Below are positions 13,876-39,955 of a DNA stretch of 64,000 bases, one piece after another. The notes below the pieces were generated by a model. The model ran no database searches, was not told the DNA's origin, and worked only from the letters and a program-made list of their open reading frames with translations. The stretch lies in contig CAXHJY010001528.1 of NCBI GenBank assembly GCA_964016885.1, positions 72,791-136,790 of the forward strand. The letters run 5' to 3'. Each line of letters begins with the position of its first letter. The stretch's first letter is position 1. The translations under genes were made by a program, and so were the position numbers. The DNA is from Eledone cirrhosa. Taxonomy: Eukaryota.

Positions 13876-14082
13876 TAGGAACAAATAAGACCCCGACGGC
13901 TGAGCTCAAGCCGTTTCGACGGCTAATTCTGTACTCAATTACAGTACAGAATTAGCCGTCGAAACGGCTTGAGCTCAGCCGTCGGGGTCTTATTTGTTCC
14001 TATTACCCACTCTACTACCCTAAGTATTGAGTACTTTGGTGCGTTATGGTCCACCTGGTTCCTTACCACATTTCCTTCGTTA
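13876..14082 (+). mobile_element. Tailed palindrome, family A, copy 2 (perfect 60-bp arms, 7-nt loop, 80-nt tail)
   Basis: 13876-13935 is the exact reverse complement of 13943-14002; tail 14003-14082; (TA)n on both sides. Confidence 0.9.
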
Positions 14083-14229
14083 TATATATATATATATATA
14101 TATATATATATATATATATATATATATATATATAGTATAGGTGTATATTTCCCACGTTAGCTAGGTCTATATATATCTATATATATATATTACATATATA
14201 TATATATATATATATATATATATACAATT

Positions 14230-14409
14230 AAATTTAATATAGAAATGGCTTCTACAGGGTTAGAACTGTTTCGTACGAATGACACAGTTCTAGTCCTATA
14301 GAAGCCTATAGGACTAGAACTTCTATATTAAATTTCGTTGTTCTCACTCTAATGTATTGAGTACCTTATGTACTGTGGTTACCCGATTTCACTCGGGATC
14401 TACATTCAT
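14230..14409 (+). mobile_element. Tailed palindrome, family B
   Basis: Arms aaatttaatatagaa...ttctatattaaattt (14230-14335) with an extra internal inversion; ~74-nt tail containing GTATTGAGTAC. Confidence 0.7.
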
Positions 14410-14539
14410 ATATATATATATATATATATATATATATATGTGTGTGTGTGTGTGTGTGTGTGTGTGTGTGTGTGTGTGTGTGTGTGTGTATGTGTGTGTG
14501 TGTGTGTGTGTGTGTGTGTGTGTGTGTGTGTGTGTGTGT

Positions 14540-14720
14540 AAAAGGTAAACAGAAATAACAACACAATCGGTACAGTATATGGAAGGAATATATTAGGTTA
14601 ACGCTTGAAATAGCCGGAAGAGGGTCCTAAGGTTTCGGACGCAAGTCCTTCATCAGAAGAAAGAATGAGAAATAAGATAGATTGAAGGGGCGGGCTGGAT
14701 GGAATTGGAAAAAGTGTCTT
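14540..14720 (-). mobile_element. Penelope-like 3' repeat with minimal hammerhead core (14628-14660), ending in (CA)n
   Basis: Minus strand CTGATGA-A-GGAC ttgc GTCC-GAAAC; homologous to 34830-35010. Confidence 0.7.
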
Positions 14721-15232
14721 TCGATAAAAAATAAAAGGTCATCTCTTGGCAAACTATATTAATAAGTTGATGGCATCTCAATGCCATGAGGCGCGTCATA
14801 CACTCTAAGATACTCCACCATCTTGCCAATCACTGTCTTGCTCAATGCTAACTCGGGTTAAACAGATGCAGAGTATATCTCTACGGAATTCGGCAGAGTG
14901 AGGTGGCTGAAATTGAACAAAATCATCAGGGCAATCTACAATAGATCAATATGATCAGCGACTTAACGATCATCAAATCATCCAATAACGACATCAACAT
15001 TTTTTTATATATCCCACAAATTAATTATGGTCATCAACAAAAATTAATACAGCTAACATTAAACAATTGATAATCAGGTCATTCGGTAAAAAGACCAAAG
15101 ATATATATATGTGTGTGTATGTATATATATATACATACACACACAACCCAACCAGGAACTGGGCATATCAGAGTATTGACAAAGTTATACACCTCAACAA
15201 CATGTGTACTCGTCTCTACCACAATAATTCGG

Positions 15233-36185: not shown

Positions 36186-36540
36186 GGGCGGGTAAAATTC
36201 CCGAGATCCATGGACGAGTGCTCTCCAGCGGTCTCTGTCCCTCATCGTCGCTGCCATGTCCTGCGTCTCCAAGAGACCAGTGTCTGTCCTTAGGGCATCA
36301 ACATATATCAACCTCGGTCTCCCTCTTCTAGTGTGTCCATGCAGGAGCTCCCACAGGAGCACTGAGTGCAGTGTCAACTCTGGATGTCGGTGAGCATGTC
36401 CAGCTAACCTCAGTCTCCTCTGTGCTAGTCTCGGGCTGTCTTTTGGGAGGCTCCCGTACAGCTCTGAGTTCTTCACCCTCAGTGTATACTGATTAATGTT
36501 CAGAGCCATCCGCAGCATTCTCGTGTAGCACCCACCCAAT
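36186..36540 (-). mobile_element. RTE-clade LINE 3' fragment in (TA)n
   Basis: GCYTRMLRMALNI...RRLRLAGHAHRH...RGRPRLIYVD...MRDRDRWR. Confidence 0.85.
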
Positions 36541-36611
36541 ATATCATATATTATATATATATATATATATATATATATGTTTGTGTCTTTTCTTTGTCAG
36601 TTATCCCATAA

Positions 36612-36795
36612 TAATTGTTTCTACTTTTGGCACAAGGCCAGCTATTACCCCAGTGTATTACTGGTACTTTATTTTATCGACCCCGTAAGGATGAAAGGCA
36701 AAGTTAACCTCGGCGGGATTTGAACTCAGAATGGCAAGAGCCGTAACTAAATGCGTCAAAACATGGCGTCCGACCCTCTACCGATACTGCCAATA
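36612..36795 (-). mobile_element. SINE family 1
   Basis: Reverse complement of head plus core. Confidence 0.8.
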
Positions 36796-39654
36796 GGATT
36801 ACTGACAAAGAGAAATATATATATGTCAACGTCATCATTTTTCCGTTTTCCATGCTAGAATCCATGTATGTATGCTTACATACATGCATACATGTATGTG
36901 TCCATATATACACGCATACATGTATATATGCACGTGCAAATAAAAGTGTGCATGTTAGTATGCATGCATTAATGCATGTATGTACGTTTCTATATTTATC
37001 TGCTTGTATGCCAATACACATATATGTATGTATGCATACTTGCCTATTTGAATATATGTATGCATGCATGCGTATATGTAAGTATGTATGTATGCATGCC
37101 TGTATGCATTTATGGTCGGGTCGTTGGCGACTAAACTGGCAACCCCACCAAGGTTTCTTGGTGTGGAGGGTGACTTTGGACATCCTGCAGGACTAAAAAC
37201 AAAACCTGTCAAAGGGCAAAGGAGCTCACTATAAAAGCTTCACGGCACAGGCATTGCTTTATATCTGGAGATCTCTCTGCACTTGTCGTCACATGGTACC
37301 ATGGGCCCAGCACTATGTGTCAATAATTGTCACAAGTGTAGTGTTTGTACCAGAGTTTTCAAGTCGCTGGCTGGACTAAAAAGTCACACTTGTTCAGCGC
37401 ATCGGTAGGGGTTCTCCTACATGGATATAAAGTAGTGGCCGTACTCGAAAATGAGTTGGCAGCCACCATGCATTTATGTATGTATGCACGCCTACCTATA
37501 TGCATATAGGTATGCATATATGCATACCTATATGCATGCAATGTAGGAATGTGTATGTCTGCAGACATGCATATGCATATATATTCATAAATTCATATAT
37601 GCATGCCACAATCATTAGTTTCTCCTCTTATCCTTCTTGGGTGTTATTTGAGTTGAATTTGACTGCTATTTCTAGCAGGTCGTGTTACTATGTATAGGTC
37701 CTCCCGTTTGTTGTAGACAGAAAGTATCGGTATGAATATATATATATACATAAGCATCGTAGGGTGTACGTTCCTACAGGTATATAATTGTATGTGTATA
37801 TGGGTCTATATGTGTCTATATGTGTATGTATGTTTATGTACGTGTGCGTGTGCACGTGAATGTGTGTGTGTCTGTCTGTTTGTGTTTATGTGTGTATGTC
37901 TATGTGTGTGTGTTTTTGTGTCTGTATCTGATAGTATGTGTGTCTGTCTGTGTCTGTCTATATGCGTGTACAGGGTGCCTGTAAATTAGAACCCGTTCCT
38001 TGGTAGTCAAGTCCTGTGAAACAGGTGCCAGACCTATGTATATGACACCTTATGTTTCTATACTCCGATCAGTGCTGACGTCAGCTCCCCCACAACAACA
38101 ACAACACCAACAACATCATCATCAAAAACAACAACATAAAAATAAGATAAAAAAACAACAACAACACAAGCAAAGAAAATCAAAAAACACCCCCAAAACA
38201 AGAACAAAACCTCAAAAATCAAAACCCTACCCCAGATGATACTTCCTGGCTAAGAACAGTTTGTTGATATATCAAGCTCCTTTCCTCCCGAAATCCCTAC
38301 CTACCTATCTACCTACCTACCAGCCAGCCAAACAAACCATGCCTACCCTAGTCCCCTTTCTCTAGTCATGTTTCATAGCTTCCCTCTACGTTTCAGCTTC
38401 TTCACAGCCCCCCAACCAAGCCCCTTGTCATCTCCTAAGGGCTCACCTGACTCACTCAATTTTCGTTCATTTGTTAACTTCCTTGTCCCCCGCCACCACC
38501 TCATCCCACTCCCTCCGCTCCCCCCTCTTCCACCCTCTCTTTCTCTTCTCTCCCTCTCTCTCGCTCTCTCTCTTTTTCTCTTTCTTAGTTTTCTCTTTCA
38601 TCAATTATATATATATGTGTTAGTGTGTGTGTGTGTGTATGTATATATATATATATAACTTTAATATATATATATATATGTGTGTGTGTGTGTGTATGTA
38701 TATATATATATAACTTTGATATATATATATATATATATGGTTGCTTAGATAGACAGATAGATACACACTCACATATGTGTGTTCATATATATATATATAT
38801 ATATATATGTATATATATATATATATATATATATATATACATATATATATATATATATATACATATATATATATATATATATATATATATATATATATAT
38901 ATATATATATATATATATATGAACACACATATGTGAGTGTGTATCTATCTATATATATATATATATATATATATGTATGTATATATGTATGTATATATAT
39001 ATATATATATATATATATATATATATATATATATATATATAAATGTATGTATGTGGTTGTTTACCTACTCCTTTACTTCCCTCTCTTCCTTCTACCTATT
39101 TTTCGGGTAGTATGGGGTGGGTGGAGTAGTTCTTTCTTACTCTTCTCTCTGCCTCTCTCTTTCTTTCTCTCTTTTTCTATTTCCCCCAAGTTAAAAAGGC
39201 TATCTTTTACAACATCCTTCCTTGTTGGTGTATACATACATATATATATATATATATATATATATATATATATACTCACATACACACACATATATATATA
39301 TATATATATATACTTATATATATATACACATCTATATGTGTGTGTATGTGAGTATATATATATATATATACACACACACACACACACACATATATATATA
39401 TACATATATATATATGTTAAGTCATTTACCCTCCATTCTCTCTTCATCCCATATGTAAATAAAAACCTCCTCCCCTTCCTCTTCTATTACACCCGCCCAT
39501 TTCACTACCTCCTCCTCCCTCTTGTTCTCTCTTTTAATCTCTTTATCTATTTCACTCTCTCTCTCTCTCCCTCTCCCTCTCACACACACACACTGTATCA
39601 TTCACTCCCCCTCCTCTCTCTCTCTCTTCTACCCATTTCCCATTCACCTTCCCT

Positions 39655-39955
39655 CATAAAAGAGATTATTTCTCACATTGAAAGAATCAAGGCCTCAGAT
39701 TTATTAGGAACTTGGATACGTAGTGAAGTGTTGTGAGGTGAGGTGTGACGCCCCTGATGAGCAGATTGGACTGGAGTCAGGTATATGGCATTCACATGGA
39801 TACTGAGCCACCCATCTGTGAAACGGTCGTAACCGTGCATAATCAATAAAGACGCTAATGTGAAAGCTCGTTTTGTTCTTAATATATACACTCTGCCATG
39901 GCATAGAGTGCTGATTTTGATACCTTCCTCAGTAAACCACGAATCTACTAAACCA
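39655..39955 (+). mobile_element. Penelope-like 3' region with long-stem-II hammerhead (39748-39840) and ACTC..GAGT tail hairpin
   Basis: CTGATGA-GCAGAT...ATCTGT-GAAACGGT cgta ACCGT-G; AATAAA at 39845; CACTCTGCC at GGCA ta GAGTG at 39889-39910. Confidence 0.55.

Follow-up and report, generated by a model that had tools for sequence, protein, structure and literature searches.

Penelope-like elements (PLEs) of the Hydra clade are described as inserting into (TA)n, carrying a hammerhead ribozyme near the 3' end, ending with or without a tail, and being accompanied by a 5'-truncated inverted copy (PMC8557442). In the anole PLE known as PAc, two internal start sites of the reverse transcriptase (RT) delimit the tail, and RNA reaching to position +172 is needed though the first start lies at +111-118 (PMC11167929). 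We analysed a stretch of 64,000 nt from Eledone cirrhosa (assembly GCA_964016885.1, contig CAXHJY010001528.1, positions 72,791 to 136,790 of the forward strand), hereafter the window, in which a preliminary description had noticed a small hairpin shared by the tails of several short repeats. These repeats have the (TA)n target, parts of a hammerhead, the optional tail and the inverted copy in common with Hydra-clade elements, whose own consensi carry the hairpin; in contrast, the published tails measure 30-40 nt as compared with 60-80 nt here, and the window copies lack an open reading frame (ORF) (PMC8557442). Sequence comparison indicates that the hairpin is a real, conserved, covarying cis structure of Hydra-clade PLEs.

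We defined the motif as RCTC, a variable inner stem of 2-7 bp, a UH bulge and GAGY, followed by RC, and its copies in the window tails are referred to as hairpin 1. In family A, hairpin 1 lies on the plus strand at 14009..14034 (core of the preliminary description, 14009-14032), with a 4-bp inner stem, a UU bulge and a trailing AC. Four further family A copies were found, at 10220..10245 (minus strand, with changes relative to the 14009 copy in loop and bulge only), at 31664..31689 and 43514..43539 (minus strand, each matched by the pattern and by the covariance model presented below) and at 31973..31998 (plus strand, a tail-only piece with (TA)n directly 5' of it). The remaining plus-strand members are those of family C (16025..16051, core 16025-16049; 6-bp inner stem, UC bulge), of the 39.9k element (39890..39911, core 39890-39909; 65 nt after GAAAC and preceded by TATATA) and of family B (14346..14364, core 14346-14362), the weakest true member. 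The coordinates given for these four hairpins by the preliminary description proved exact, while its stem details needed correction: the 2-nt loop of the 39.9k hairpin is impossible, the actual form having 3 bp and a 4-nt loop, and the inner stem of B amounts to only 2 bp. A weak match claimed for family D (8981..9001, minus strand) fits in position, 4 nt after a TATAT boundary, but three defining features are missing (it has no U in the bulge, no GAGY arm and no trailing RC) and it gives no match to the covariance model, so that we regard it as a doubtful look-alike.

The simple pattern ACTC-N5-20-GAGT gave 19 matches in the window as compared with 6.7 +/- 2.7 in shuffles, and a stricter descriptor, generalised only after the Hydra consensi had been viewed, gave 10 (eight tail copies, one nested match and one stray at 46286), whereas shuffles averaged 1.1. 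When eight stretches including six motif-bearing tails were folded, the hairpin was the minimum-energy fold in C and in family A copy A10 and formed part of it in 39.9k, whereas A14, B and D had other minimum-energy folds; the B hairpin on its own is unfavourable (+0.9 kcal/mol). The outer stem never varies among the window copies and thus shows no covariation there, and the swap of TAC/GTA to TGC/GCA, which had been called compensatory, may be a single event; covariation is therefore not established by the window sequences taken alone, and outside sequences are needed. With four families, possibly one compensatory event and the poor folding of B, the window by itself would be compatible with chance resemblance, or with shared descent in the absence of any structure.

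Outside the window, the metagenome-assembled genomes (MAGs) G001-G005 were searched with a pattern in which GAAAC, the outer arms and RC are set and any inner stem is allowed. At least three inner pairs were present in 13 of the 15 distinct motifs behind an intact hammerhead as compared with 9 of the 61 without one (Fisher p 2.6e-7), most of these nine being tails with decayed hammerheads. A working set of 26 instances, with a median flank identity of 48%, was then formed by the four window families, the 15 hammerhead-linked motifs and seven instances added by eye. In this set outer pair 1 is GC in 22 instances and AU in 4, inner pair 1 is UA in 17 and CG in 9, inner pair 2 is AU in 8, GC in 8, UA in 5, CG in 1 and UG in 1, with 3 mismatches, and inner pair 3 is CG in 15, GC in 5, UA in 1 and AU in 1, the stem being too short in 4. 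Both sides change in four of the seven pairs, and loop length and sequence are free. The first bulge base, which the search pattern did not fix, is U in 26 of 26. Even outer pair 3 is replaced, by A-U in hairpin 2 of locus L129 and by C-G at the start of Hydra-1_Crog. Column permutation gave p <= 1.5e-4 for four columns, also after collapse to 23 clusters, RNAalifold recovered the identical seven pairs, and pairing cells reached 96.6% as compared with at most 54% when slid. The percentage paired, the number of double-change cells and the covariation score each exceeded 500 of 500 shuffles.

In agreement with this, a covariance model built from the 22 non-window instances (its E-values are rough) placed the eight window copies among its top nine matches in the 64 kb, out of 16 matches down to E 10: the five copies of A, C and 39.9k at E 0.0004-0.015, followed by the stray match at E 0.23 and by B at E 1.5. 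Held-out copies just before ORF starts were found as well. As a null we used a metagenome scan with an ACTCT pattern and a TA run, which is blind to the GCTC/GAGC form; it returned 117 chance-like loci, and of 119 chance matches only five had at least three extra inner pairs. Taken together, the hammerhead-linked pairing, the pair types, RNAalifold, the shuffles, the out-of-window model and the rarity of such extra pairs among chance matches largely refute resemblance without structure, to which we give next to no credence, and the earlier claim of covariation holds once outside sequences are included.

Tandem or complete elements follow the order ORF, 3' untranslated region (UTR), hammerhead, hairpin 1, hairpin 2, ATG. 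The hairpin period is 60, 61, 62, 63 and 69 nt in five of six leaders, in which hairpin 2 sits 19-33 nt before the ATG; the sixth leader is truncated and holds hairpin 2 only, and the ORF start of L225, whose 5' end is inverted, gave no hairpin match. In L256 and L169 an additional U bulges out after the first inner pair of both hairpins, which suggests concerted evolution of the two copies.

The element ends stand in a fixed relation to this pair. At 10 of 10 sites (nine for hairpin 1, one for hairpin 2), the last base shared with a sister copy entering (TA)n precedes the hairpin by 3-7 nt; by eye, the value for B and D is 4 nt. Tail-less ends stopping before the hairpin were observed in family A and in six other families, and the inverted arm stops 4 nt before it in family B (by eye) and 3 nt before it in family C. 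The tailed 3' end of L256 comprises hairpin 1 and 33 nt more and stops at the TATA that, in the leader of this element, precedes hairpin 2 by 4 nt, and L257 shows a junction of the same type over about 13 nt only. TAT is present at -13 to -3 of the hairpin in 23 of the 26 instances but in only 13 of 104 control windows. Since the tail-less end lies before hairpin 1 and the tailed end before hairpin 2, the optional PLE tail equals one hairpin period.

These ends bear on the geometry proposed in the preliminary description, in which hairpin 1 acts like the 3' stem-loops of long and short interspersed elements (LINEs and SINEs) and RT starts 45-50 nt downstream. The distance itself stands for A, B and C, whose tailed copies end about 45-49 nt after GAGT, and is about 34 nt for D; bulged or internal-loop stem-loops are, moreover, required by eel and zebrafish LINEs (PMC6510757). 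Yet downstream distances range from ~32 to 49 nt as compared with upstream offsets of 3-7 nt, the many tail-less copies that stop 3-7 nt before the hairpin are left unexplained, and the tailed end coincides with the TATA before hairpin 2. We therefore abandoned this geometry as very improbable; relative to it, the arrangement observed is doubled and runs the other way round.

Family A shows the tail-less end in large numbers. Matches to 13940-14081 occurred in 24,328 of 12.5 million restriction-site-associated DNA (RAD) reads (X18) and in 18,009 contigs (X1), and in 3 and 2 contigs of two other organisms. The exit point of tail-less copies into (TA)n is the TAT at 14001..14003 (plus strand), 5 nt before the hairpin; 3,823 reads (X18) and 93 contigs (X1) leave family A at 14003 into (AT)n. 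Inversion joints of the family fall at 13942-13956. Among the variants listed, 4 of the 8 loop and bulge positions are variable as compared with 1 of the 16 paired positions (p 0.03).

From these comparisons we consider it somewhat probable that the hairpin, present twice in the leader, binds the RT-endonuclease and sets the RT start at the UAU 3-7 nt 5' of it. While the fold, the covariation, the tandem pair and the end offsets are observations, the priming steps are our interpretation. The template would be a read-through sense RNA, tandem or circular. The nuclease would nick a (TA)n target, the freed 3' end would pair with the UAU adjoining the hairpin, and copying would proceed away from the hairpin that set the start, which would thereby be left uncopied. 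A start before hairpin 1 would give a tail-less end, whereas a start before hairpin 2 would include hairpin 1 and give a tail of 60-80 nt; the window copies would be 5'-truncated, 5'-inverted products, likely of the Hydra clade. The two-start behaviour of the anole element agrees with internal priming and offers a precedent for it. Of the RT recognition site suggested in the preliminary description, the conserved, covarying PLE structure thus stands, and a role in placing the RT is the best reading of it. More tentatively, the duplicated hairpin-UAU module, found in at least four animal phyla, might be a portable device for internal priming, in which RT docks 3' of the start, pairs UAU with nicked (TA)n and possibly reiterates like telomerase. 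If this were true, the PLE tail, the preference for (TA)n and some of the genomic (TA)n load would all follow from a single module.

Other roles for the hairpin were weighed against the same observations. It might control translation or transcription of the leader, the ends being set only by TAT microhomology with the target; this would suit both the place of hairpin 2 shortly before the ATG in five leaders and the strong enrichment of TAT at the ends, but AT-rich leaders and 3' UTRs hold other TATs and the ends nevertheless cluster beside the hairpin, which makes this highly improbable. A fixed offset of 3-7 nt would also be predicted if the hairpin formed in single-stranded DNA (ssDNA), in the cDNA or a flap, and were bound by the GIY-YIG endonuclease, whose nick at the neighbouring TA would resolve tailed and tail-less ends. 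Consistent with this, the Drosophila virilis endonuclease needs the tail for element recognition (as cited in PMC11167929), the tail was ascribed to endonuclease-mediated resolution by Craig 2021 (PMC8557442), and Ssn GIY-YIG nucleases recognise ssDNA hairpins (PMC11893778). The internal TAT is apparently itself targeted, with (TA)n directly before the tail-only pieces at 31967 and at the L256 5' end. On the other hand, the tail boundaries in one reconstituted PLE are RT starts on RNA (PMC11167929), the hairpin adjoins a ribozyme in a transcribed leader, and two G-U pairs are tolerated, so that we judge resolution at the DNA level, the foremost of the competing readings, possible but unlikely.

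An antisense RNA template was considered as well, on which the hairpin would form a telomerase-like boundary before which RT stops, perhaps slipping on UA and adding (TA)n. The ends do keep the same spacing from the stem, the (TA)n that they enter differs in length, the stem consists nearly throughout of Watson-Crick pairs and can form on both strands, and an antisense PLE template has been proposed from head-to-head palindromes (PMC3846280). Variable 5' truncation with fixed 3' ends is, however, the pattern that priming at the 3' end of a sense template should leave, sense RNA is the in vitro template of the anole element (PMC11167929), and the genome is full of pre-existing (TA)n; we hold this alternative to be quite improbable.

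Several points weigh against priming on sense RNA at a hairpin-set start. Sense and antisense hairpin energies are nearly equal, only two G-U pairs in the 26 instances favour the sense strand, and sense RNA, antisense RNA and ssDNA are indistinguishable from sequence alone. For a tailed end fixed by hairpin 2 there is a single clean family, L256, besides the short junction of L257. The statistics have their own limits: the number of pairs with double change (227 of 500) and of further pair types (400 of 500) did not beat the shuffles, neither the permutation nor the shuffle tests take phylogeny into account, the search pattern itself imposed outer pairs 2-4 and RC, 7 of the 26 instances came in by eye, and the family A variant counts cover 40 of 52 rows. 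Neither is the hairpin universal, given family E, Hydra-1_Obim and three ORF 3' ends: family E (43180..43416, minus strand), an inverted arm and tail in (TA)n built like the other tailed palindromes, shows no hairpin by descriptor or model and is a counter-example, and no hairpin was present in L118, L120 and L137, three of the 21 ORF 3' ends with a hammerhead. Finally, the Hydra ORF motif had no match in the 64-kb window, so that no ORF links its copies to the clade.

The build of the window copies nevertheless has the hallmark of PLEs, that is, 5' truncation, an inverted copy next to the element and, at one end, a tail that may or may not be present. The inserts of families A, B, C and D are short and lie within (TA)n in the order inverted arm, direct arm, tail, and the truncated ends are 60-330 nt long. 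Thus the family A insertion at 13877..14080 (plus strand) consists of a tail-less inverted arm, a direct arm and the tail between (TA)n runs. It includes, at 13961..13989 (plus strand), the 3' half of a type I hammerhead as read from sequence (GAAAC, stem III, GUC site and the 3' strand of stem I), the 5' half having been lost at the inversion; cores were assigned after Cervera 2014 (PMC4209133) and Craig 2021 File S2 (PMC8557442). Only the GAAAC half is kept in A, B and C, while the 39.9k hammerhead (39754..39839, plus strand) retains both core halves, with CUGAUGA, a long stem II, GAAAC, stem III, and a cleavage site and stem I that look decayed. The distance from GAAAC to the hairpin is 43-67 nt in the window as compared with 48-70 nt in hammerhead-intact comparison loci. 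Runs of (TA)n type flank both sides of nine of the ten elements checked, the exception being 39.9k, whose tail adjoins a SINE at ~39959; (TA)n insertion is shared with Naiads and so is not diagnostic of the Hydra clade alone. Because no ORF is present, we infer the Hydra-clade membership of these copies, and their families are likely of this one clade; the tails called unrelated in the preliminary description are so in sequence, yet likely not in descent.

Hydra-type elements from published consensi and from database contigs extend the comparison. Among six consensi of PMC8557442 inspected by eye, the tails of Hydra-2_Amil and Hydra-2_Ajap contain the hairpin, its outer stem being GCTC/GAGC, two hairpins stand at the start of Hydra-1_Ajap, and Hydra-1_Crog has imperfect copies at both ends; Hydra-1_Amil and Hydra-1_Obim, both of which end tail-less, have none. 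The hairpin-bearing consensi come from a coral, a sea cucumber and a sea louse. Six bulge-plus-arm 8-mers gave 23 matches in the supplement of that paper, of which four were complete motifs, all Hydra, and the other 19 fell in non-Hydra files and had no 5' arm. The clade is defined by a single ORF with RWK and DKT, a CxCX5C linker, a C-terminal GIY-YIG without CCHH, and a length below 3 kb. In GTDB contigs a degenerate ORF motif yielded 11 loci and alignment 20, apparently animal contigs inside bacterial MAGs, and the ORFs of the comparison loci show RMRWK, ADKT and CNC..CP. A hammerhead or half hammerhead stood at 21 of 22 ORF 3' ends, followed by an exact hairpin in 10 (L125 included), by a one-mismatch copy in 1, by a tail-less end in 7 and by neither in 3. 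The bare motif pattern exceeded its reversed control in G002 and G005 and was not enriched over it in G001, G003 and G004. Copies in G001 are near-identical by eye to Hydra-2_Amil, so G001 likely contains coral DNA. Several GTDB representative MAGs (L118-L144, G001-G005) hold such animal PLE contigs, and the Hydra-clade ORF P0006 is named 'hypothetical protein [bacterium]' by NCBI. ORF P0005 is intact and 709 amino acids (aa) long; 2,695 relatives at E 1e-20 or better were found among 8,000 scored, so that by sequence the Hydra-type clade appears far larger than the 27 families listed by Craig 2021 (PMC8557442). For most of the 120 relatives listed (P0005-P0124) the longest contig measures 2.1-3 kb, close to the length of one unit, which is what the collapse of tandem or circular units would give. 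Two queries found no Hydra-type ORF in viral contigs, a Pfam scan of two Hydra ORFs gave nothing meaningful, and a locus search with a single protein gave back that protein alone.

Other assignments of the copies and of the motif were rejected. Naiads are recognised by an N-terminal endonuclease and the lack of a canonical hammerhead, and five cephalopod Naiad 3' ends compared by eye matched none of the window tails. Non-LTR retrozymes consist of non-coding units in tandem, every one of which has a full type I hammerhead (bioRxiv 10.64898/2026.07.22.740005), whereas the window copies are dispersed and inverted. The motif is not stem III of a hammerhead, since it has no GAA in front of it and there is a distinct hammerhead further upstream. 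In all four window families (14022-14036, 16039-16054 and 39900-39914, for example) the inner 3' strand can alternatively form a hairpin with bases that follow GAG, but a conserved two-state switch, in which the inner 3' strand pairs with TRC after GAG, fails in most outside instances. The family A loop (14015-14023) holds CCCTAA, complementary to the telomere repeat TTAGGG; it varies among copies, and the likeness is therefore probably coincidental. Rfam returned no relevant match for the 39.9k element, hammerhead included, or for L256, and no family matching the hairpin of either; on the whole window its matches were microsatellite-driven microRNA (miRNA) ones among the 150 of 629 listed. 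A 32-aa frame before the 39.9k hammerhead had four repeat-like matches and is likely 3' UTR.

The window DNA is rich in microsatellites and contains further repeats. At 31617-32043 a family A arm is followed by (TA)n, a 100-nt LINE-like fragment, more (TA)n and the tail, an arrangement suggestive of expansion or targeting of the internal TAT; at its end the tail piece jumps to upstream arm sequence at a GTTCC microhomology, and the fragment, which we take to be an RTE-like LINE 3' end, recurs at 36187-36289. Two more hammerhead-bearing ends enter (TA)n with no tail, at 32248-32330 (plus strand) and ~5620-5790 (minus strand), and are probable tail-less copies of further families. A PLE-like family in (CA)n with a decayed GIY-YIG-like C-terminus, presumably Neptune-like, and a minimal-hammerhead element occupy 14540-15030 (minus strand), 34856-35008, 358-465 and 15130-15350 (plus strand), and none of these ends has the hairpin. 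A very abundant SINE-like repeat occurs at 16356-16535 and in about 17 other places, and 55400-62950 is ~7.5 kb of degenerate (TA)n with a long inverted symmetry around 59430-59480.

A literature search that had most subscription papers and Repbase reports outside its reach found neither a description of this hairpin nor a mapped RNA recognition element of the Hydra clade. The accessible text of PMC8557442 does not mention the hairpin, its duplication or a link to the two ends. As regards PLEs at large, the preliminary description knew of no such stem-loop; one at an RT start had already been reported, but it is different (PMC11167929). The cause of the optional tail, a signature of PLEs, is unsettled, and the hairpin offers a candidate for it. 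A structure of 20-30 nt whose covarying pairs are known, which stands at a fixed offset from both ends and for which intact cognate ORFs exist makes a direct test by mutagenesis possible. PLE RTs are the sister group of telomerase RTs, and the way in which they are positioned on RNA therefore bears on telomerase origins. The covariance model also classifies ORF-less palindromic repeats embedded in (TA)n and flags animal contigs in bacterial MAGs.

Among known systems, hepadnavirus epsilon and the telomerase template boundary element also have a stem beside the template that positions RT, epsilon being bulged and present twice; unlike the Hydra proposal, however, epsilon serves protein priming and the telomerase boundary is a stop signal. 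Several Hydra hammerheads in Craig 2021 File S2 (PMC8557442) have a stem III of the form ACTC-n-GAGT, the same 4-mers as the outer stem in the window; by sequence, the hairpin might be derived from a hammerhead stem. Ssn nucleases with hairpin SRM/NTS sites share a GIY-YIG enzyme and a dispensable hairpin loop, but are bacterial, stand-alone and without an RT, and bear only on DNA-level resolution (PMC11893778). The Poseidon element PAc resembles the elements described here in having two starts that delimit the tail, an AT-rich target and a requirement for RNA 3' of the first start (PMC11167929). It differs in clade and sequence and starts inside an AC-rich stem-loop within the ORF, whereas here the ends lie 3-7 nt before two 5'-UTR hairpins; the PAc RNA as printed in Fig S1B of that paper has no RCUC...GAGY arms with a UH bulge. 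The stem-loops of eel UnaL2 and zebrafish ZfL2 are likewise small, stand close to the element end, contain a bulge or internal loop that is flexible and are thought to be read by RT, but their place is 5' of the start, every insertion receives a copy of them and their loop is specific (PMC6510757). In the Hydra hairpin, by contrast, the loop is free, the lower stem, the bulge and the trailing RC are conserved, and the hairpin that adjoins an end is left out of it.

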